DNA from: Candidatus Moraniibacteriota bacterium
Lineage (GTDB): Bacteria > Patescibacteriota > Minisyncoccia > Moranbacterales > UBA2206
Length of the DNA stretch: 64,000 bases
Direction of reading: 5' to 3'
Assembly: GCA_003543115.1 (NCBI GenBank)
Contig: DPJH01000036.1
Location: 9,182 to 73,181, forward strand
Within the stretch, counting starts at the first letter, position 1. Each line of letters opens with the position of its first letter. The position numbers and the translations under genes are program-made. Of the stretch, positions 10,464 through 45,585 are shown piece by piece. Below the pieces are notes generated by a model. That model had not been told where the DNA came from. It saw only the letters and a program-made list of their open reading frames with translations, and did not search any database.

Positions 10464-11618
10464 CTATCCTTTTATTGGCATTACAATATATATATATTCA
10501 TCTAAAACTTCTCCTGTTTTTTCATTTATCTCCTTAATAGCCACCGGGGAAGATTCATTGTTTAATAAAATTGCCACCTTGCCGGTTCCAATAATATTTA
10601 TTCCATCTAAAAGGTATTTTGAGTTAAAAACTACTTCTTGAGATGGCCCTACGATGTCTACCATAAGCTCTGTTGAATTTTCTCCACACTCTACGCTTCT
10701 CGCTTCAATAAAAAACTTTTCTGCCTCAGAATCGATTTTAAAAACGATCTCGCTATTTTTAGTTTTGGAAAAAACGCTCGACATTTTTATTGCTCCTTGA
10801 ATAGTACTTTTTTCACCCACAACCCTTGTTTGAAATTCCTTAGGCATTATATGTTTATATTCAGGATATTTCCCATTAATAAGCCTTGATACAATATTAA
10901 CCCCATTAATCTCAAAAAATATCTGTCCATCCTCTATGGCTATATTTATTTCTTCATCTATTTCACTGTTTATGATACGAGCTATTTCTGATAGTGTATT
11001 GGCAGGTATAATTATGCTGTCTTTTTTAGAGATAAAATCAAGATAACCATCTTTTATATTACCCTCTTCCAATAAAAATTTATTTTCTACCAATCGAAAA
11101 CTGTCAGTAGAGGCAAAATATAATTCATTTTCTTTAAAAATAAGATTTATCCCTGTTAATTCTTGTCTAGTTTCATTAAAAGCCACGCAGCTAATAACCT
11201 TGTTTATTATATTTTTTAATTTAATACTAGAAAGAGTTAATATATAATCACTATTTTTCCTTGGCAAAAGAGGAAAATCATCTGCCATCAATCCTTTTAT
11301 TATTGCTTTAGATGTACCACTTTTTATTTTTAAATTCTGATTATCCACCTCTATATTAATATTTTCTCCAGAAGGAAGATTATTTATAAAATTACTTATA
11401 AGTTTTGCAGGAATTGTAATTTTTCCTTCCTTTTCAATTTTAGCTCCTATTTGTTTAGAAATACCTATTTCCAAATTTGTAGCGGATATTTTCAAAACAC
11501 CATTTTCTGTCTCAAATAATATATTATTCAAAATAGGCAATGTGTTTTGTTTAGAAACTACCCTTTCTGAATTTAGAATAGCTTTTTTGAATTTTTCTTG
11601 AGTGCATGTAAGTTTCAT
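10464..11618 (-). CDS. dnaN: DNA polymerase III beta clamp
   Basis: LPILNN, ATNLEI, STDSFRL, GKYPEY, FNSKYL, VMPI. Confidence 0.97.
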   Translation of the reverse strand: MKLTCTQEKFKKAILNSERVVSKQNTLPILNNILFETENGVLKISATNLEIGISKQIGAKIEKEGKITIPAKLISNFINNLPSGENINIEVDNQNLKIKSGTSKAIIKGLMADDFPLLPRKNSDYILTLSSIKLKNIINKVISCVAFNETRQELTGINLIFKENELYFASTDSFRLVENKFLLEEGNIKDGYLDFISKKDSIIIPANTLSEIARIINSEIDEEINIAIEDGQIFFEINGVNIVSRLINGKYPEYKHIMPKEFQTRVVGEKSTIQGAIKMSSVFSKTKNSEIVFKIDSEAEKFFIEARSVECGENSTELMVDIVGPSQEVVFNSKYLLDGINIIGTGKVAILLNNESSPVAIKEINEKTGEVLDEYIYIVMPIKG

Positions 11619-11890
11619 AATATTAGATATATAATATATTATTTAAATATATATAAATAAATAGTTATTATATATAGAAAACAAAATTGTTAATAAGTCT
11701 ATTTTATGGCTATAATAAAGTATTTTATCTGTGGATATTGGTGTGGATAACTAAATGATTTGGTTTATTATAAAAAGGAGTTATTTTTTAAATTTCTATA
11801 AATCACTTAATTCTAAACACCTAATCAGTCAAATACTAGAGGTTTATTTATAGGGAATAGAGAGGAAAAAAACAACTTATCCACAAGTTA
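11619..11890. other. oriC, dnaA-dnaN part: DnaA boxes and AT-rich unwinding element
   Basis: TGTGGATAT 11730-11738, TGTGGATAA 11742-11750, TTATCCACA 11877-11885, degenerate TGTTAATAA 11688-11696; almost pure AT at 11619-11680. Confidence 0.85.
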
Positions 11891-13267
11891 TCAAGTAATC
11901 TTATATAACCTTTCCTTTATAAGGGTTATTTCTTCTATTAATTTATCATTATTTTTTAATTCTCTGGTTATTTTATTACAAGCATGAATAGTTGTTGTGT
12001 GGTCTCTTCCTCCTAATTTTTCTCCTATTCCCGGAAAAGAATATTCTAATTCGCTTCTCATAAGATACATCGCGATTTGTCGTGGCTTAACAACCTCTTT
12101 TTTTCTATTTTTAATAATCAGATCATTTGGGTTTATATCATAAAAAGACGAGACAATATTGATAATATGTTTATGGTTGATGCCTTTTTTCTTTCCACTG
12201 GTAATAAGTTCTGATAGAAGGGTTGAAACATATTCTAAAGAAGGCTCTTTTCCGCTTAATTGAGAGGAGACCATAACTCTATTAAAAGCTCCTTCAAGTT
12301 CACGAATATTATTAGTTATGTTTTCAGCTATAAAGCTTAATGTTTCACTGGGAATATTAAAATTTTCATCACGAGATTTCTTGCTTAATATAGCCATTCT
12401 TGTTTCAAAATCAGCTTTTGAAACATCAGCAATCATGCCTCCTTCAAAACGTGAACGCAATCTTTCTTCTAGGGTTGGAATAGCTTTTGGAGCTCTATCG
12501 CTGCTTAAAACAATTTGTTTGTTAAGTTGGTATAAATAATTAAAAATATGGAAAAATTCCTCCTGCGTTTTTTCTTTTCCAGATAAAAACTGAACGTCAT
12601 CTATAATCAAAAGATCTATTTTTTGATAATGCTCCTTGAAATCATTTACCTTTTGTGTTCTAATAGAATCTATAAGTTCACTTGTAAAGCGCTCTGAAGT
12701 TATATATTTTACTTTTCTAGAGGGATTTTTTTGTAATATTTCATTGCCAATAGATTGAAGAAGATGTGTTTTTCCAAGTCCCACGCCTCCGTAAATAAAC
12801 AAAGGATTGTAAATTCTGCCTAGATTTTGAGAAACAGCGTAACAAGCAGCCTTAGCAAGCTCATTGCTTGATCCGACTATAAAATTTTCAAAAGTATATT
12901 TAGGATTAAGATTATTTTCTTGGCTTATGGTAAGGGTTTTTTTAATGAGAGGCTTATTTAAGATAATTTTCTTTGGAGGTTGAATAGCATCCACCCTGTT
13001 CTCTGAAAAAGAAGTATCATCGCTTGTTTTTATAGAACAAACAACCTCTCGTATGTTGTTTTGGGTATTGCGGAGAGCTTTAAGAATATATAGATTATAT
13101 TTATTCTCCAGCCATTCTTTAGCAAATCCATTTGGAACGCCAATAACAACCCTTCCATTTTCACTGGAAAGGATAGAAGTGTTTTTAAACCACGTAATAA
13201 AATTAGCTTTCGAAATTGAAAGTTCTATTTCCCCCAAAGCAGCCCTCCAAAGCTCTTCATTAGTCAT
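11891..13267 (-). CDS. dnaA: Chromosomal replication initiator DnaA
   Basis: YNPLFIYGGVGLGKTHL, LIIDDVQF, RLRSRF, NIRELEG, GGRDHTT. Confidence 0.98.
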   Translation of the reverse strand: MTNEELWRAALGEIELSISKANFITWFKNTSILSSENGRVVIGVPNGFAKEWLENKYNLYILKALRNTQNNIREVVCSIKTSDDTSFSENRVDAIQPPKKIILNKPLIKKTLTISQENNLNPKYTFENFIVGSSNELAKAACYAVSQNLGRIYNPLFIYGGVGLGKTHLLQSIGNEILQKNPSRKVKYITSERFTSELIDSIRTQKVNDFKEHYQKIDLLIIDDVQFLSGKEKTQEEFFHIFNYLYQLNKQIVLSSDRAPKAIPTLEERLRSRFEGGMIADVSKADFETRMAILSKKSRDENFNIPSETLSFIAENITNNIRELEGAFNRVMVSSQLSGKEPSLEYVSTLLSELITSGKKKGINHKHIINIVSSFYDINPNDLIIKNRKKEVVKPRQIAMYLMRSELEYSFPGIGEKLGGRDHTTTIHACNKITRELKNNDKLIEEITLIKERLYKIT

Positions 13268-13340
13268 GGTGTGATATTAATAAGAAAGATTCGTTATAAA
13301 AATAATTATATCATGCAAAAAAACAGATGTCTAAGCAAAA

Positions 13341-13375
13341 TGTGGATAAAGGTGTGGATAAGCTGTTGTTAATAA
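13341..13375. promoter_or_regulatory. DnaA boxes upstream of dnaA (autoregulation or second part of oriC)
   Basis: TGTGGATAA at 13341-13349 and 13353-13361; TGTTAATAA at 13367-13375. Confidence 0.8.
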
Positions 13376-13462
13376 GAAATAATCATAAATATATGTTCAT
13401 TATAGAATAGGATGGTAAAAAAGCAAATGGGAATAATTTAAATAAAAAGATAAAGCATATAA

Positions 13463-20947: not shown

Positions 20948-22088
20948 TCCTATATAGCTTATCATCAATTTTATTCACAAAAAACAGATAGCTCTCATTG
21001 TAGCTAAGAAATAGGCCGGTGGCATCGTAAGTTGTTTTAAGTTCTTCCAGCGGAACTACGCGGGTTTTTTCTCCGGTTTTCAAATTAACTTTCCAAAAAG
21101 TGTCGTTGGTGGTAAAGGAACTATCAAGATAGTCATTAGGTAAGATATTTTTTTCTGAAATAGATCCAGGCAAGGCACAGAATACGAAGCTATTGTTTTT
21201 TGACCAAACACATTTGGAAACGAAAGTGGGCAGTCCGATGTTTTTATATTCTCCGCCTAGGCTGTTGGCAAAGCCTAGTTCCATTTTATGCCCACCCTTT
21301 TGGTCTACATTGCTTCGCAAAAACATGGTTCCGTCGCTGTTCCACAAATAATCAGCGCCAAAAACTCCGGATGACAGTACTTTGGTTTCTCCTCCCATAA
21401 TAGGGGTGGACTGGAATAGTGTTTCGGAAAAGGAGTCAGGCTTATTCCAAAAAGAAATAAAACCTGATTTTGGAACAGGAGCTATGCTAATGCTGTCTGA
21501 GGAAAAGGTAGTAATTTTATTCCAATTTTCTCCATTGGGATCAGAAATATTGATGGATTTCTCTTTATTTTTATTGTCGAAGTAGGTATAAATAATTTTT
21601 TTATTGCTTTGCCATGAGACAGCGCCGATGCTTTCATTGAGCCGAGAGGCTTTTTTGGTCAGATAGTCGAAGAAAGAAAATTTCGGATATCCGGCGCCGC
21701 TCGAAAATTTTGAAATGACCATTCCCTGGTTAGGAGACCAATAAACATCAAGAAGACCGATCAGATTGGCATCAGAAACAACCTTTTTTTCTAAAGTCAA
21801 GAGATCCAATTGATAAACCTTTCCGCTGGATTTGGAATAATATTTCATAGATTCATCGTTGTCTGAGAGTATGGGTGAAATAACGGATTCGTCGGTGATT
21901 TTTTGGATGCGTTCTTCGTTGCCGACAATGCTTGTTTTTTCGACTTGGGCATCATCGGATTTTTTACTGACAACAGCTTCTTTTTCCGGAGAGGGTTTTT
22001 TGAAGGAAAAAATATAGATTCCCCAAAACAAAAGAGTAATCAAGAGGATAGAGGATGATGTAATGAATATTTTTTTTGAGAGAAGCAT
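20937..22088 (-). CDS. Membrane-anchored beta-propeller-like protein
   Basis: N-terminal TM, repeated WSP/WQS/WNS/WSK blades; last gene of the T4SS-like locus. Confidence 0.6.
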   Translation of the reverse strand: MLLSKKIFITSSSILLITLLFWGIYIFSFKKPSPEKEAVVSKKSDDAQVEKTSIVGNEERIQKITDESVISPILSDNDESMKYYSKSSGKVYQLDLLTLEKKVVSDANLIGLLDVYWSPNQGMVISKFSSGAGYPKFSFFDYLTKKASRLNESIGAVSWQSNKKIIYTYFDNKNKEKSINISDPNGENWNKITTFSSDSISIAPVPKSGFISFWNKPDSFSETLFQSTPIMGGETKVLSSGVFGADYLWNSDGTMFLRSNVDQKGGHKMELGFANSLGGEYKNIGLPTFVSKCVWSKNNSFVFCALPGSISEKNILPNDYLDSSFTTNDTFWKVNLKTGEKTRVVPLEELKTTYDATGLFLSYNESYLFFVNKIDDKLYRIRL

Positions 22089-22105
22089 TTTTTTGTATTT
22101 TAAGC

Positions 22106-23185
22106 TTATTTAGCCAAACATTGTTTTTGGTAGTTTTGAACTTTCTGGACATAGTCCCGGGTTTCTTTATATCCTTGCTTGTTGGGGTTGTTTTTATGGA
22201 CACCTTCTCCTTCCACGCTTCCGTCAGCAAAATAAGGGCATTGCCACGCCGGCATGCTTTCAGGATATCCTGCTCGCCCCTTGCAGGCTTGAGATTCGGC
22301 AAACGGGCCAAGTTTTCCTTCACCAGCCTTTGCTCCTCCTCCGCCATTATAGGATGCGATTAAATCGTCATTTCCTGTATAATAACTGCCTCCATCCGGG
22401 AAAGTTACTTTTTCTGTGCCAGGAGTTGTTTGTTTGCTGGTTGGGAATTTTGTATATGAATTAAGCTGGGATTGGTTTGATTTGAGAAGCTCAGCGGCCT
22501 TTTTGATGCTTTTTTCCGGATCGCTTAACTCCGATGCGCTCATACCGGCGGTATCAGGCTTGATTTGCATGAGTCCATAAGCTCCTTTATTGCTGCCTCC
22601 TACATTAGAATTGCATCCGCTTTCCTGCATGGCAATTCCCTTAAGAAGGCATTGGGTTTCTTTATCCGGAGCAGCTGAATTAAATTGTGAATCATATTTA
22701 TCGCATGCTGGAGAAAGAGATCCTAGTTTGACAGGAGTGCCGGTTGTCGGAGGGGTCTCACCAGGCTTAGTTGGTGTTGTTGGTGCTCCTCCTCCCGTTG
22801 CCGCTCCTCCGCCCTTGGTTCCGCAAATGCCATTTATTTGGGTGAGATCCGGATTGATTTCATACAGAATGAGATAGGAAAAAAAAGCGAGCAACAATCC
22901 TACGATAGCATCAAAAATCACTCCTTTGGCTTTTCCCATGCTGGCATTGTTTCCGGCTGACATGATATACATATAGCCTCCGATTATGATCATAAACATA
23001 GCGCAAATACCGATCACCCAAATCCCGAATTTGTAAACAGCAGAAATATAGTTGCAAAAATTTCCATCAGTCGTAACTCCCGGAATTTTTTCCATGGGAG
23101 TATAATCAAAAGAAGCTAAAACATCCAAAGCAGGCATTGCGATGAAGAGAAGAGCAAAAAAAGGAAGAAGAAATTTTTTAAGCAT
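22106..23185 (-). CDS. VirB2/TrbC-like pilin fused to an SLT lytic transglycosylase
   Basis: Signal peptide; two-TM pilin (MIIIGGYMYIMSAGN...AKGVIFDAIVGLLL...INPDL); IAMQESG, GLMQI, ASYNGG, ETRDYV. Confidence 0.8.
   Translation of the reverse strand: MLKKFLLPFFALLFIAMPALDVLASFDYTPMEKIPGVTTDGNFCNYISAVYKFGIWVIGICAMFMIIIGGYMYIMSAGNNASMGKAKGVIFDAIVGLLLAFFSYLILYEINPDLTQINGICGTKGGGAATGGGAPTTPTKPGETPPTTGTPVKLGSLSPACDKYDSQFNSAAPDKETQCLLKGIAMQESGCNSNVGGSNKGAYGLMQIKPDTAGMSASELSDPEKSIKKAAELLKSNQSQLNSYTKFPTSKQTTPGTEKVTFPDGGSYYTGNDDLIASYNGGGGAKAGEGKLGPFAESQACKGRAGYPESMPAWQCPYFADGSVEGEGVHKNNPNKQGYKETRDYVQKVQNYQKQCLAK
22789..23185 (-). repeat. Direct repeat copy 1 (397 bp), identical to 23934-24330
   Basis: Base-by-base comparison found no mismatch; offset 1145 bp. 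Confidence 0.9.
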
Positions 23186-23214
23186 AAAAACAGTGCGGTT
23201 AAAACATTTACATT

Positions 23215-24330
23215 TTATTTACAATTATAACATACATCCCAATGATTACCTTCTCTTGCATAAGTGTTTCCAGACGGATCTTTATATAAAGTTGCGCCAT
23301 CGCTACGTGTGCCAGTTTTTTTATAGTTTGTCTGGATATAGTTATTGACTACCGGAGTATCATCGATATCAATTTTATATCCATTCGCATGCGAATAATT
23401 TCCACTTGCGTGTGGGCTGCTTTCTGCTCCTCCGGTAATGACAATTGGTGCGCCAACTTCTTTTTGGAAAGCAATGATGCTGTTAATTGAAGTATCTTTG
23501 AGTCCGCTTATTTTAGTTGCGCCAGGACTTGATTCCCATACGCTGATTTGCCCGTTACTTCTATTTGTTAAATCAGTTCTTGAAGTTGTTTCCGAGGCTG
23601 GGGAGCTTTCAGGACAGGGCTCATTGGTTATAGGATTGCCCCCCTCACATCCATCGGGAGACCTAGAGGTTATGAGTCTTGAGTGTGTGGTGCTTCCGGG
23701 CGTGCACAATGTCCAGGGTGAATATTCAAATTCAGTGCAGGTGTTTCCATTATTGCAAGTCCTGCTGGTAGCTTCTGGTGCTTTGCCGGTGCACCCGATA
23801 GGCAGTCCGGTAGCGGTCCTTGTTTGAGTTTCACTGCCTGTACACTGATCCGGTTCCCAGGATGAATAAGTAAAAGCACTGCATTCCTTGCCTTCTCCAT
23901 AAGGCTTTTCTGTTTCAGTCTTTGTCGTCTCCTCTCCTCCCGTTGCCGCTCCTCCGCCCTTGGTTCCGCAAATGCCATTTATTTGGGTGAGATCCGGATT
24001 GATTTCATACAGAATGAGATAGGAAAAAAAAGCGAGCAACAATCCTACGATAGCATCAAAAATCACTCCTTTGGCTTTTCCCATGCTGGCATTGTTTCCG
24101 GCTGACATGATATACATATAGCCTCCGATTATGATCATAAACATAGCGCAAATACCGATCACCCAAATCCCGAATTTGTAAACAGCAGAAATATAGTTGC
24201 AAAAATTTCCATCAGTCGTAACTCCCGGAATTTTTTCCATGGGAGTATAATCAAAAGAAGCTAAAACATCCAAAGCAGGCATTGCGATGAAGAGAAGAGC
24301 AAAAAAAGGAAGAAGAAATTTTTTAAGCAT
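23215..24330 (-). CDS. VirB2/TrbC-like pilin fused to two Cys-rich TSP1-like repeats and an M15/LAS-like metallopeptidase domain
   Basis: Same first 132 aa as the neighbour; C..F.YS.W..C...R repeats; SHANGYKID (H-x6-D) and EGNHWDV. Confidence 0.7.
   Translation of the reverse strand: MLKKFLLPFFALLFIAMPALDVLASFDYTPMEKIPGVTTDGNFCNYISAVYKFGIWVIGICAMFMIIIGGYMYIMSAGNNASMGKAKGVIFDAIVGLLLAFFSYLILYEINPDLTQINGICGTKGGGAATGGEETTKTETEKPYGEGKECSAFTYSSWEPDQCTGSETQTRTATGLPIGCTGKAPEATSRTCNNGNTCTEFEYSPWTLCTPGSTTHSRLITSRSPDGCEGGNPITNEPCPESSPASETTSRTDLTNRSNGQISVWESSPGATKISGLKDTSINSIIAFQKEVGAPIVITGGAESSPHASGNYSHANGYKIDIDDTPVVNNYIQTNYKKTGTRSDGATLYKDPSGNTYAREGNHWDVCYNCK
23934..24330 (-). repeat. Direct repeat copy 2 (397 bp)
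   Basis: Identical to 22789-23185. Confidence 0.9.
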
Positions 24331-40813: not shown

Positions 40814-42340
40814 CTATTCAGTTTTAAAGCGGTATTGAATGGCTTCGGCAATATGGGACGGTTCAATATGGTCAAACTCTCCTAAATCAGCAACAGTTCT
40901 GGCCACCTTTATGATGCGATAGTATGCGCGAGCGCTAAGATGCAGGTTTGTTACGGCAGTTTTCATTAATTCTATGCAATTTTTATTAAGTTGGCAAAAT
41001 TCCTTTATTTCTTTGCCGCCCATTTCGCTGTTGGTAATTATAGGTGAATTTTTGAAGCGATTTTTCTGAATAATTCTGGCTTTTTCTACTCTTTGGCGAA
41101 TAGAAAGCGAGCTTTCAGAGGTGAAATTTTCTGCTAATTTTTCAAATTTTATTCTTGGCACTTCTACATGAAGATCTATGCGATCAAGGATTGGCCCCGA
41201 AATTTTTCGCTGATACTTAATAATTTGAGCAGGAGAGCAAGAGCAAGCCTTTTCTGGATCAGTGGCATTGCCGCAAGGACAAGGATTCATGGCTGCTACC
41301 AGAGTGAACCTGGCTGGAAATTCAAGGGTTCCTTGAGCTCGAGAAACGGTTATGATTCCGTCTTCCAGTGGCTGGCGAAGGTTTTCTAGGACGTTTCTTG
41401 AAAATTCAGGAAATTCATCCAGGAAAAGCACGCCTCTATGGCTGAGACTGATTTCTCCTGGTTTAGGATATGTTCCTCCTCCTACGAGTGAAACTGCACT
41501 GGCGCTATGATGCGGAGAGCGAAACTGTCTTTTTGTTATAAGCGGAGTGTTGGTTGGAAGTTGGCCGGACACGGAAAAGATTTTGGTGATTTCTAGAGCC
41601 TCAGGGACGGTAAGTTTGGGCAATATTGAAGGCATGGTTTTAGCTAAAAGAGTTTTTCCAGAACCTGGAGGACCATTAAGAATGACATTATGCCCTCCGG
41701 CAGCAGCAATTTCCAATGCTCTTTTGGCATGCTCTTGTCCTTTTATAAGAGACATTTCGCATAAGTGATTTTCAGCAGTAAAAAGACTGTCTAAATCTAA
41801 TTGAGCGATAGGCATCATTGTCTTTTGTCCAGTGAGATGGGAAATCAGCTCTAACAGGTTGTTAACCGAATAAATGTTTAAGCCTTCTATTACTGATGCT
41901 TCCGGAGCATTTTCACTAGGGACAAATATTTCTTTCAATCCCATTTTTTTAGCCATAATGGCCATAGGCAACACTCCTTTGACCGGCCTTACAATCCCAT
42001 CAAGGGAAAGTTCTCCTAAAAACAGTTTTTGAGCATGATCAAATTTTATTTGTTTGGTAGCTAAAAGGAATCCTAGAGCGATAGGCAAATCATAAGCAGG
42101 ACCTTCTTTTTTAAGATCGGCTGGCGCCAGATTAACAGTAATGCGACCGCATTGATGTGGGGGCTTGAATCGGCTATTTCTGATGGCAGCAGCTACTCTG
42201 TCTCGAGCTTCTTTTACAGCAGCATCAGGCAGCCCTACGATATTAAATTGGTGAAGACCGGCTGAAACTGCATCAACTTCAATTTCGATTAGTTCGCTTT
42301 TAAGGCCGATATTGGCTGTAGAAAGAATTTTTGATGACAA
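40814..42340 (-). CDS. comM: ComM/YifB AAA+ ATPase
   Basis: VGLPDAAVKEARDR, GPPGSGKT, PHHSAS, LFLDEFPEF, NPCPCG. Confidence 0.95.
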   Translation of the reverse strand: MSSKILSTANIGLKSELIEIEVDAVSAGLHQFNIVGLPDAAVKEARDRVAAAIRNSRFKPPHQCGRITVNLAPADLKKEGPAYDLPIALGFLLATKQIKFDHAQKLFLGELSLDGIVRPVKGVLPMAIMAKKMGLKEIFVPSENAPEASVIEGLNIYSVNNLLELISHLTGQKTMMPIAQLDLDSLFTAENHLCEMSLIKGQEHAKRALEIAAAGGHNVILNGPPGSGKTLLAKTMPSILPKLTVPEALEITKIFSVSGQLPTNTPLITKRQFRSPHHSASAVSLVGGGTYPKPGEISLSHRGVLFLDEFPEFSRNVLENLRQPLEDGIITVSRAQGTLEFPARFTLVAAMNPCPCGNATDPEKACSCSPAQIIKYQRKISGPILDRIDLHVEVPRIKFEKLAENFTSESSLSIRQRVEKARIIQKNRFKNSPIITNSEMGGKEIKEFCQLNKNCIELMKTAVTNLHLSARAYYRIIKVARTVADLGEFDHIEPSHIAEAIQYRFKTE

Positions 42341-42383
42341 CTTATTATATTTTTTTATCCGGCACGAGAGATAAAAACTTAAA

Positions 42384-42761
42384 TTAATTTTTATTTTTAA
42401 AAATAGACGATATGGTAATTATAGCACCAAAAAAAATAAATACATCAGCTAAATTAAAAATTGGCCAAAACTTCAAATTTATAAAATCGATTACGCATCC
42501 AAATGTCAATCGATCAATTATATTGGAAAAAGCTCCGCTAAGAATAAGTGTTATTCCGATAGATCTCAGTTTTTGATTTTCAGTTTTTGAAAAAGTATAC
42601 GATGTCAAAAATGCAATGAATATTATCCATAACAGCCAAAATAGGGCGGTTGGCATTTTCACGCCAAAGGATATGCCGGAATTGCAAATATAAAATCCGC
42701 CCGAAAAGCGGATTAAATACTTAGACAATTGGTCAAGTAAAATTGTAAATACAAAAAGCAT
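42384..42761 (-). CDS. lspA: Lipoprotein signal peptidase II
   Basis: DQLSK, NSGISFG, GAFSNIIDRL, VIDFI, FNLAD. Confidence 0.9.
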   Translation of the reverse strand: MLFVFTILLDQLSKYLIRFSGGFYICNSGISFGVKMPTALFWLLWIIFIAFLTSYTFSKTENQKLRSIGITLILSGAFSNIIDRLTFGCVIDFINLKFWPIFNLADVFIFFGAIITISSIFKNKN

Positions 42762-43118
42762 CTAATTGCAGCTTATACAGGTTTTTGCAGAGGGGTTAGC
42801 TTTCAATCTCTCAATATCAATTTCTTGTTTGCATTTTTCGCAAACACCGAATGTTCCTTTTTCTATTTTTTCTAGCGCTGCAATAATATCTTGGAGCTTT
42901 TTTTCCAAAGTAATCTCTACAGGAAGATTGTCTGTATATTCTTCTACTTCAGTCGCATTGTCTTCTCTATCGCTTCCGATATCGTCAAATGTTGTTTCAT
43001 AGTCGCCTTTTTGCGTGTTAATGGGCTTAGCTATGCGTCTAAGATTTTCTTCGAGTTCTTTTTTTTCTTTCAAAAGAGAATTTTTTATATCAGAAAGAGT
43101 GTTTTTATCAATTGTCAT
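42762..43118 (-). CDS. TraR/DksA-family C4 zinc-finger protein
   Basis: DREDNA (DxxDxA) coiled-coil tip; CEKC...ERLKANP..TCISC. Confidence 0.88.
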   Translation of the reverse strand: MTIDKNTLSDIKNSLLKEKKELEENLRRIAKPINTQKGDYETTFDDIGSDREDNATEVEEYTDNLPVEITLEKKLQDIIAALEKIEKGTFGVCEKCKQEIDIERLKANPSAKTCISCN

Positions 43119-43275
43119 AATATTATTTTCCTTAAAATTGTTAAAAGTTAATCGTAGCTTTATTTTAGCAAAAATATCGGCAGATGTCTATTGTTTGGGT
43201 TTGTAAGGATAAATCAAAAAACTAATCCATATTACAACATATCATATAAATAATTGCAGATAATGCAGCTTTAAA

Positions 43276-43683
43276 TTAGGAAAGGTAAATGTTGGGCAGA
43301 TGCTTTATTTTGGCTCGCCGCGTTTCCCAATCAAGCCAAACAGAGATAGCATCAAATCTGTACGATTTATCTTCCCAATGCATTTTTCTAAGGTATACGG
43401 AGGCTATTTTCGCTAGTTTTTGTAATTTTTGATAATTAATATTCTCTTCAGGCATAGTCTTGCCATATCTGGCATAATCCCTGCTCTTTACTTCTACGAA
43501 TATGATCTCGTTTTCTTTTGTGTCTCTGGCTATAATATCAATTTCTCCTATCCTTCGTCCGCAGTCATTCTTAAAATTCATTGCCAATATTTCAAAGCCT
43601 TTGCTTCGGAGAAAATTAGCCGCAACTTGCTCACCTGTTTTTCCTACGGATTGGGTATTTGGAATGATTTTCTCTTCGCTCAT
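43276..43683 (-). CDS. yraN: YraN-family nuclease (track start 43698)
   Basis: GKTGEQVA, GEIDIIA, FVEVKSR, RFDAI; ATG 43683 lies 6 nt after TATAAT. Confidence 0.9.
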   Translation of the reverse strand: MSEEKIIPNTQSVGKTGEQVAANFLRSKGFEILAMNFKNDCGRRIGEIDIIARDTKENEIIFVEVKSRDYARYGKTMPEENINYQKLQKLAKIASVYLRKMHWEDKSYRFDAISVWLDWETRRAKIKHLPNIYLS

Positions 43684-43718
43684 GACTATATTATACATAA
43701 AATTTCACTTTTGGAAAC

Positions 43719-44260
43719 AAAAAAAACACCTCTATGGGTGATATAGAAACCTAGGGTGTTACAGAGGTATGTACCTAAATAATAAAATATTGGACAACAT
43801 ATAACACCCAAAGGTGTTCGTCAATGTGAACGCGTCGGACTTTTTGAGTCATTTGATTGGGTGAGAACCATTTAACCACTAAAAGGTCTAGCGTGTAATG
43901 TTATTACTTACACATTGAAAAGTTTAGTATTATTCTGACTTTACTTAATACTTTTTGACTCTCTTACCATTCTCTGGCACTTGGCCTTTGAATCGTCGGT
44001 AACTACTTGGAGAAGCATTTATCGAATTGCTGCTCGAAGTAGTTACCAACTTGTTTTAAAGAACATTTTTTATTTTTTGTTTTTATTTTAATAAAAATTT
44101 TTTTGTTTTTATTTTAGGGTCCTCCGGTCAGAAGTCGGAGGCGGCTTCAAGATGTTACTTGAAACACTTGAACAGTAGAGAGGTTTCAATCGCAAATAGG
44201 GGGAAATTGCGATTGAAGCTCCTCTACCGTTACTGGAATTTAATTTTCAAGGATCACTAT
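43719..44260 (-). ncRNA. Candidate large structured ncRNA (~540 nt), family unknown
   Basis: Own promoter; at least seven stems; ends in a stem plus U8; the ATG-started ORFs I found on this strand are at most ~25 codons. Confidence 0.55.
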
Positions 44261-44266
44261 GAACTT

Positions 44267-44295
44267 ATTATAGCAAAAATAAGCGGCTAGGTCAA
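44267..44295 (-). promoter_or_regulatory. Strong sigma70 promoter facing the non-coding region
   Basis: TTGACC-17 bp-TATAAT with extended -10 TG. Confidence 0.75.
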
Positions 44296-44456: not shown

Positions 44457-44465
44457 TTATCCACA
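44457..44465 (+). promoter_or_regulatory. Perfect DnaA box outside oriC
   Basis: TTATCCACA in intergenic DNA. Confidence 0.5.
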
Positions 44466-44511: not shown

Positions 44512-45585
44512 TTATAGATTTGCTTTGTCTAGGATGGATTCGATTGTGAATTTGGTTGTTGTTATAATAAGTTTATTTCCTTGAAACGCATAATCAATCG
44601 AAAGCTTTTGGGCGGAAATCAAATTTTGATATCTGATAGTATGATTTTTGTATTGAGTGCTTTCAAATGGGGATGTGGGAATTGCAAAATCTGAATATGG
44701 CAGGATGGAAGCAAGCTCCTTATATAAAGAAGTTTCTTCTTGGGAAATTTGATTATTTGCCAACAGGGGATCTGTGGTATTTAAAACCAGACCCACTCCG
44801 AAATTTCCATTATCATCAAACAAAAATAAGCTGAATTTTTTTTCTAGAGAAGATAATATCTCAGCAGAGAGGGTTATATCGGCCATCTTTGCAAAATCAG
44901 AAAATGATATAGGATTATTTTCTTTGTCTACTACTGTAAATTCTATCGGTGTTTTTAATTTGGCGGTAACAATGTTTTGAATTTTGGATTCTAATGTTTT
45001 TTTAAGCGATACCGGATCAATACTGGCAATGTCTATGACAAGATAATTAGGGCTTTCTGCGCTTATTGTCAGAGCAGTATCCTTTTCTTCTAACGGATTT
45101 TCTTGAGCAATATTTAATGATGGGCTGCTTTGAATTTTATTTTCTGGGGATTTTCTCGTAGTAATGAAATAATATGTTCCAATGCCAACAAAAATAATAA
45201 TCAAGAAGCTCAATAAAAGCAGAATTTTTTTTGAACCGGACGACTCGGACATTTTAATATTAGAGTCGATCTTGGGTTGGATGATCTTATTTATTTGTGC
45301 ATAATCTTGTTTTGATTTCGGCCTGCTTTCATCTGAAAGATTTGATTTTTCGGGGGGAGTAAGAAAAGGACTGCTTTTTTGCTTCTCGTTCAATTGCAAT
45401 GATGGATTTTCAGGAGATGATTTTTCCGGGTAAAGAGTTTTCTTCATTGAAGGATTTTCAATTTCTTGGATATCCTTTTCCATTGTATGAATAATGATAT
45501 CTTCAATTTTGTAGTCTTTTTCCTGGCTTAAATTATTGTTATTTTCTTGGTTTTCATCAACAAATGTGCTTTGATTTCTAAACAT
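44512..45585 (-). CDS. Bitopic membrane protein, function unknown
   Basis: Disordered N-terminus (IHTMEKD), one TM, globular C-terminal domain. Confidence 0.7.
   Translation of the reverse strand: MFRNQSTFVDENQENNNNLSQEKDYKIEDIIIHTMEKDIQEIENPSMKKTLYPEKSSPENPSLQLNEKQKSSPFLTPPEKSNLSDESRPKSKQDYAQINKIIQPKIDSNIKMSESSGSKKILLLLSFLIIIFVGIGTYYFITTRKSPENKIQSSPSLNIAQENPLEEKDTALTISAESPNYLVIDIASIDPVSLKKTLESKIQNIVTAKLKTPIEFTVVDKENNPISFSDFAKMADITLSAEILSSLEKKFSLFLFDDNGNFGVGLVLNTTDPLLANNQISQEETSLYKELASILPYSDFAIPTSPFESTQYKNHTIRYQNLISAQKLSIDYAFQGNKLIITTTKFTIESILDKANL

Follow-up and report, generated by a model that had tools for sequence, protein, structure and literature searches.

The window (the whole 64,000-nt stretch of Candidatus Moraniibacteriota DNA that we analysed) carries a predicted RNA gene on its minus strand, between two sets of protein genes. 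Upstream of it is a gene for a 357-aa single-pass protein (44512..45585, minus strand), which follows pnp and, by ORF and family scan, has no Pfam family. Downstream on the same strand are yraN, dksA/traR and lspA (42384..43698), with a comM-type gene beyond lspA (40814-42340). The yraN and comM-type Mg-chelatase genes lie in one run (40814-43698); genes of these two kinds act together in natural transformation.

The first-pass annotation had proposed a leftward promoter. We observed that this site (TTGACC-17-TGCTATAAT, 44267..44295, minus strand; a sigma-70 promoter with an extended -10) ranked first, with a score of 11/12, among the 14 promoter-like sites of a 3-kb region. It was conserved in 19 of the first 20 homologs parsed, and in the remaining one (L020) the promoter lay just beyond the excised stretch and was present there too. 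The predicted RNA is 542 nt long (44260-43719, minus strand), its start being placed from the -10 element. It ends in an intrinsic terminator (43719..43740), a short hairpin (43727-43740) with a U run, which was conserved at 20/20 of the best loci and was missed by a scan of the region for promoter- and terminator-type signals. A long final stem had earlier been placed directly before the U run; this stem exists, but the terminator is the short hairpin, and the long stem (P9) is an element separate from it. A promoter-like site for yraN itself was also present, as had been suggested (43717-43690).

The region had been described as free of credible ORFs, and we found the same. Inside the RNA gene, the only ORFs of at least 50 aa were the ends of two plus-strand frames, reaching 43741 and 43746. 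No ORF was conserved over 90 homologs, the largest family of similar ORFs coming from 15 loci only. The 542-nt strand folded with -142.8 kcal/mol (z = -7.06; 0/100 shuffles were equally stable). As the opposite strand folded equally well (z = -7.20), folding alone cannot assign the strand, and the assignment was made from the promoter, the terminator and the covarying loop pairings. A DnaA box (44457..44465, plus strand) lies about 200 nt upstream of the predicted start. Using the commonly known consensus, a box was found within 330 nt upstream in 69/90 homologs, against 4.8% expected from shuffles.

We then describe the RNA from 5' to 3' (all coordinates are on the minus strand). A first boxA-like motif (44244..44255) is followed by strand a, the 5' side of the lower P1 stem (44219..44230; from folds and alignment). 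The P1 tip (44185..44217) is a stem of about 11 bp with a C-rich loop (44196-44206); it covaries and is also kept outside the class. Strand a' with a toehold (44170..44182) can pair with either a or a'', as seen from a comparison of pairings across copies. Two hairpins follow, P2 (44145..44164), which is variable and drawn from folds, and P3 (44121..44141), whose loop kisses that of P7. An A-rich linker (44066..44115) carries two A5C-type repeats flanking a small stem, and next to it is the second boxA-like motif (44054..44064). A long hairpin (43998..44047) that had been named earlier is present, but it is an optional, lineage-specific insert seen in 4/19 copies. The small hairpin P6 (43976..43986; GGC-loop-GCC, from folds of homologs) precedes strand a'' (43959..43972), the second partner of a'. 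P7 (43926..43952) offers its loop (43933-43939) to P3. P8 (43821..43918) is an irregular rod with a CACCC loop (43859-43866), and P9 (43749..43815), recognized from folds and alignment, is a long hairpin with an AU-rich loop and a conserved GGG.

All the stems named in the earlier annotation were found where it had placed them. Two of its pairings did not hold across homologs. Both halves of the proposed GAGUCA/UGACUC pseudoknot occurred in 2/90 homologs only, and the CUUGAA/UUCAAG closure uses the boxA-like motif, whose commonest variant (GAACATTAAAA) cannot form the pairing.

A DNA search of 41 related genomes gave matches in 40, and in 24/24 within the family. The same upstream protein gene and the terminator were present at all 20 best loci, and 21/21 loci tested matched the RNA profile. 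A pattern scan of species genomes returned at least 120 stretches, with Ca. Moranbacteria or Patescibacteria as the commonest informative record titles. The 161 loci gathered included 149 profile matches; full-length copies numbered 105, of which 90 were distinct, with lengths of 397-736 nt (median 522). Twelve sampled copies had fold z-scores of -7.3 to -15.3 (12 shuffles each). Each genome carries a single full copy at a fixed locus, syntenic in Ca. Moranbacteria. In family f2, where the P1 loop was often changed, a search with a 3'-half model recovered the RNA from 39/41 genomes. Several records titled Bdellovibrionales, Micavibrio or Pacearchaeota also carry the RNA by profile match; these titles are probably wrong, or the bins mixed.

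When we examined the downstream gene in 87 copies, yraN followed 67, dksA alone followed one, and neither gene followed 19 (several of these with the longest downstream frame on the opposite strand). Since neither gene is present at 19/87 copies, the RNA unit is not tied to its downstream gene, and the earlier view that it is more than a yraN leader stands. A dksA/traR gene was close downstream at most Moranbacteria loci with enough flank and at most distant loci.

For distant lineages, the covariance model R1 holds nine pairs and is almost sequence-only, and searches with it therefore miss distant copies. Across 145 Paceibacteria outside the order it gave five weak matches, none with the RNA architecture on inspection. 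In a sample of the phylum, 3/5 weak matches were true homologs. Upstream of dksA/traR (30 loci) we found four clear copies and one possible copy, and upstream of yraN outside the order (28 loci) no copy. A hairpin pattern matched 29 of 351 genomes, nine outside the class having the C-rich loop. In total, 13 genomes in seven families beyond the class have the RNA. These copies share the P1 tip (degenerate in f144), strand a'', P9 and often the DnaA box; the A5C repeats were absent in two, and one copy (L284) is minimal, at about 300 nt. On viral contigs, one pattern match lacked a profile match, and a second scan gave none. Within the genomes searched with these weak models, the range outside Moranbacteria appears patchy.

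Some neighbouring loci may be mentioned here. In three f144 copies (L328, L330, L282) the C-rich loop is lost, and a long structured 5' extension separates P1 from the DnaA boxes. At locus L336 of a Paceibacteria genome outside the order (G324), dksA is preceded by a DnaA box, a promoter, a boxA-like motif and a P9-like hairpin; this is possibly a very distant member. At L353 and L337, dksA/traR has structured leaders of a different kind, 90-250 nt long and driven by a promoter, which gave no match to the Moranbacteria RNA. In other Paceibacteria (L252, L255, L257, L279) there are long gaps upstream of yraN, three of them with DnaA-box-like motifs.

Compensatory changes were seen in three elements on comparing related loci. 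In the P1 tip, 99.3% of 570 cells were paired and 7/10 pairs had changes on both sides; the pattern with which most of the sequences had been collected includes the loop, so that loop invariance is partly built in. P8 was 86.5% paired, with double changes in 15/16 pairs. The P3 and P7 loops could form at least five Watson-Crick pairs in 67 of the 94 copies parsed (116 in all), through variants such as UCUGAC/GUCAGA, CCUAAC/GUUAGG, UCGAC/GUCGA and UCCGA/UCGGA. Same-class combinations of these loops paired in 1131/1256 cases and cross-class combinations in 620/2404, and the distant copies had further matched variants. Outside the P1 tip, few bases were invariant.

Strand a' has two possible partners, the local strand a and a'' about 200 nt downstream, which also covers the toehold 3' of P1. 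The median was -16.7 kcal/mol for cognate a'/a'' duplexes and -11.3 kcal/mol for non-cognate combinations. In the 105 copies parsed, 99 cognate duplexes were stronger than the median non-cognate one, 85 were stronger than all 20 shuffles, and a'' was stronger than a in 51; these counts, like those for covariation, overstate the significance, as kin are not independent. In the distant copies, a'' was better than the best of 50 shuffles in 3/8 only. The two states of the window RNA came to -142.8 and -138.1 kcal/mol, 4.7 apart. Since both partners of a' are kept through sequence change, we infer a switch or an obligatory folding intermediate, and on these comparisons the RNA is likely a switch.

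The conserved promoter and terminator, the fixed single locus and the compensatory changes indicated that the locus is almost certainly a real RNA gene under selection, from which a stable RNA would be transcribed.

We evaluated the known RNA families as possible identities for this gene. The Rfam 15 covariance models found two tRNAs in the window and nothing else at the gathering threshold. A relaxed scan of the RNA region gave a best match of E = 0.14, far under the cut-off, and eight homologous loci gave 0 matches. RNase P RNA is encoded elsewhere in the genome (RF00010, contig C24, 112 bits), as is tmRNA (contig C7), and neither was found at the locus, where ARAGORN and Rfam detected no tmRNA, standard or permuted. 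SRP RNA gave no RF00169 match. The absence of RNase P, tmRNA and SRP signatures that had been noted by eye is in agreement with these scans. In the same genome (97% complete) Ffh and FtsY were not found, apart from a sub-cut-off SRP54 match, and 6S gave no RF00013 match; the 6S model matched just 5/14 control genomes, which makes its absence weak evidence either way. The 6S/Ms1 architecture (a closed rod of about 180-300 nt with a central bubble) does not fit the homologs, which are branched and 397-736 nt long. OLE, ROOL, GOLLD and raiA were rejected as no family model matched, and a T-box or group II intron domain, weighed by eye, also had no Rfam match. A MITE or dispersed repeat is contradicted by one full copy per genome and covarying pairs. 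The literature searched, in the parts accessible to us, held no description of this RNA; the supplements of bioRxiv 10.64898/2026.10.21.760802 may list the element as a cluster. The RNA thus fits no catalogued family tested and is a candidate for a new RNA class. This agrees with the earlier proposal of an undescribed structured RNA of CPR bacteria, which the lack of an Rfam match, the syntenic single copy and the compensatory changes all favour.

Of the nearest comparisons, the first is with the OLE, ROOL, GOLLD and raiA-motif RNAs. With these it shares a large multi-helix form, its own gene, a covarying tertiary contact and the lack of an ORF, but those RNAs have other hosts and the Moranbacteria RNA has no Rfam 15 match; we know of no strand-exchange helix, double boxA or A5C repeats in those families. 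S. aureus RNAIII and RsaE/RoxS likewise have many hairpins with C-rich loops, no Hfq was found in the host genomes searched, and RNase III is present; the Moranbacteria RNA differs in having no encoded peptide, no target found and no Rfam match, and in its long-range tertiary structure. Like 6S (RF00013) and Ms1, it is single-copy, strongly promoted and switch-like, and 6S was not found in its own genome, yet it is two to four times longer and branched, with no central-bubble rod. A fourth likeness, to the pre-rRNA leader of rrn antitermination, concerns a boxA-like motif right after the start with a second further on, and a strand that folds locally first and can then pair at long range (PMC10250234 and PMC13753749, in their accessible parts). 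The P1 tip also resembles the 16S leader strand in Moranbacteria. In contrast to a leader, the RNA encloses no rRNA, the 16S and 23S genes lie elsewhere, its P1 motif closes a hairpin with a C-rich loop, and the sequence match fails in distant lineages.

We further examined the motifs that recall rRNA transcription. The accessible part of PMC13753749 gives a boxA consensus for B. subtilis and describes NusB binding. Each boxA-like motif of the window agrees with 11/13 letters of this consensus (the first when one flanking base is counted). A boxA-like motif was present in the first 60 nt in 69/116 copies (0.43 expected), and a second lay no more than 30 nt past the last A5C repeat in 87/116 (0.58 expected); the second is missing in distant f94-type copies. 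At least one A5C repeat was found in 112/116 copies and in most distant ones. Similar boxA-like motifs occurred in 11/14 rRNA leaders of Moranbacteria genomes. NusB was present in 40/41 genomes, and in the genome of the window the RNase III gene adjoins the NusB gene. Rho and Hfq were not found in 5/5 genomes searched.

The DnaA boxes were also looked at on their own. The genome has 41, against 13 expected. A palindrome follows the box in 27/90 copies, the window copy having none. The pattern of DnaA box plus palindrome alone led to the RNA in 18/40 metagenome matches and matched 0/251 genomes of the class, own genome included. At two metagenome loci (L289, L313) this module stands ahead of a protein gene and not the RNA, and one similar palindrome lies on contig C16 of genome G000; the module suggests a small regulon with a repressor.

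The P1 tip gave a second possible link to rRNA. In Moranbacteria its sequence resembles that of the pre-16S leader strand with a 7-nt C-rich insert. The leader motif was found in 162/301 genomes of the order (reversed control, 0), and one 23S leader outside the class (L413) has the same motif. Leader-trailer helices are RNase III sites needed for 30S assembly, according to the accessible parts of PMC10250234 and PMC11404451; the main text of the latter does not mention Patescibacteria. We compared these helices with P1. In the 34 16S loci parsed (38 in all), only 3/8 Moranbacteria loci reached p ≤ 0.06, and no distant RNA-positive genome was above its shuffles (best p = 0.195); the script chose another helix in four loci. 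The P1 tip is conserved across classes and the 16S leader-trailer helices are not. By eye, the variants of P1 and leader agreed in both halves in only 7/24 genomes, and P1 is on this count unlikely to pair directly with the pre-16S leader or trailer. A protein site shared by P1 and the pre-16S leader is plausible, and the match may also be due to chance.

The C-rich loop was evaluated as a possible guide for 16S helix 12, which was the top helix in 2/4 genomes and the second or third in the other two; as a rough estimate, chance alone would produce a 7-mer match in 16S in about one case out of five. This candidate was rejected. Families f90 and f94 keep the loop, their helix-12 sequences differ and there is no covariation, while f6 has mostly lost the loop and kept the site. 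G-rich sites in 23S gave none common to all five loci.

As regards the rRNA loci themselves, the 16S and 23S genes of Moranbacteria are on separate loci with a promoter each (L165-L172, L205-L210). In several rRNA leaders, the promoter is followed by a terminator-like hairpin with a U run, and the last boxA-like site lies beyond it. This arrangement resembles an antitermination checkpoint, in genomes that yielded no Rho when searched.

Taking these observations together, we tentatively favour an RNA with two states that would act in trans as a decoy or scaffold for NusB-S10 and RNase III, and so would tune rRNA output under DnaA control. It would be transcribed as a stable molecule, and NusB-S10 would load at its first boxA in the way known from rRNA leaders. 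Strand a' would first pair locally with a, and a'' would later take a' over through the toehold. This exchange would trim P1 to its tip and free the second boxA, altering the access of NusB-S10 and of RNase III or another double-strand binder. DnaA would couple the amount of RNA to the state of replication, so that ribosome output is tuned between growth and dormancy. The boxA-like motifs far above expectation, their presence in rRNA leaders, the near-universal NusB, the adjoining RNase III gene, the leader motif in P1, the cognate a'/a'' pairing (99/105) and the close energies of the two states are all consistent with this, as is the nearness of dksA/traR at most loci. DksA is a regulator of rRNA promoters.

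Several observations go against the decoy. The P1 tip is kept across classes where the leader-trailer helices are not, with no distant RNA-positive genome above shuffles. The f94-type copies lack the second boxA, the distant a'' pairing exceeded the shuffles in few copies, and any stable RNA would be expected to carry one boxA at its 5' end. Nor does a decoy account for P8, P9, the A5C repeats or the C-rich loop. A wider form of the same reading, which we consider doubtful, is that the RNA belongs to an ancient class found across Patescibacteria, resembling pre-rRNA but containing no rRNA, DnaA-controlled and made by an rRNA-type transcription complex. Its toehold flip would capture and release NusB-S10 and RNase III, gating ribosome production; if true, the gating would act as episymbionts shift between dormancy and growth on the host. 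To our knowledge, no RNA of such a kind, regulating the maturation factors of bacterial rRNA in trans, has been described.

We also considered a base-pairing sRNA like S. aureus RNAIII or RsaE, in which the C-rich P1 loop (and that of P8) would bind a G-rich target and RNase III, acting on the P1 stem, would cut or block it. The CCCCCU core, the most widely kept loop, is present in 104/116 Moranbacteria copies (the majority collected with a pattern that includes this core) and in 10 genomes outside the class; the loop is predicted to be single-stranded, no Hfq was found in 5/5 genomes, and the accessible RNAIII literature ties C-rich loops to loop-loop pairing and RNase III. The search for targets went the other way. 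AGGGGG stood before a possible start codon at only 5/142 sites of the genome and occurred twice in its 822 5' regions (0.7 expected), giving no convincing target. The helix-12 candidate fails in f90, f94 and f6, and the loop is lost in several lineages, 9/28 f2 copies having no C5 run. We regard this possibility as rather unlikely.

A stand-in for 6S or Ms1 would hold RNA polymerase, with the strand exchange as the release step. The missing 6S match in a 97%-complete genome, the single copy, the strong promoter, the neighbouring dksA/traR and the upstream DnaA box would suit such a function. However, no fold showed a closed rod with a central bubble, the copies have 397-736 nt against 187 positions in the 6S model, and the 5/14 controls matched leave the 6S absence weak either way; this reading is unlikely. 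Still less probable is a ribosome- or S1-binding RNA whose A5C repeats mimic A-rich translation starts and which stores or titrates 30S. The repeats are nearly universal, and the 5' regions of the genome are A-rich (AACAAA 23 times in 822, 7.7 expected), but no conserved start codon or ORF follows the repeats, and a listed ORF start lay within 40 nt at only 4/21 genomic A5C sites.

A structural RNA or ribozyme with an unrelated job, like OLE, ROOL or GOLLD, appears improbable. Large size, wide retention and covarying tertiary pairing are typical of those RNAs; here the size, the order-wide retention, a covarying tertiary pairing and the membrane protein gene upstream in Moranbacteria are comparable. 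Against this, no Rfam model matched, the fold of the upstream protein is widespread in Patescibacteria where the RNA is patchy, and invariant bases are few beyond the P1 tip, which argues against a catalytic core. A role in cis, as a leader or riboswitch-like attenuator of yraN-dksA-lspA, is very improbable. The RNA is in line with yraN at 67/87 copies and with dksA in most distant ones, and it has two alternative folds, but neither gene follows 19/87 copies, the a/a'/a'' exchange does not involve the terminator hairpin, and yraN has its promoter-like site at 43717-43690. A decayed MITE or chance intergenic structure, for which the equal folding of both strands might speak, is scarcely credible, given that each genome has one full copy at a fixed site, that three elements show compensatory changes, that promoter and terminator are conserved and that the RNA is retained across classes.

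Few bacterial ncRNA classes are longer than 350 nt, and among those known are several central machines. Searches for Rho, Hfq, SRP and a recognisable 6S found none of them in these genomes of about 1 Mb, and the retention of this RNA there as one copy points to a core job. The reach beyond the class, the covarying switch and the DnaA-boxed promoter are concrete handles on this RNA, which may bear on growth control in CPR bacteria with so few regulators.

Two further features of the window were observed. A dnaA-like gene (11891-13267, minus strand) and a dnaN-like gene (10464-11618) were named from their N-termini, and several DnaA boxes lie on both sides of the dnaA-like gene; the stretch 11600-13400 is likely a replication origin, about 30 kb from the RNA gene. 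At 21964-24330, the overlapping frames 22106-23185 and 23215-24330 (minus strand) share their first 50 residues, which suggests a tandem duplication or an assembly repeat.
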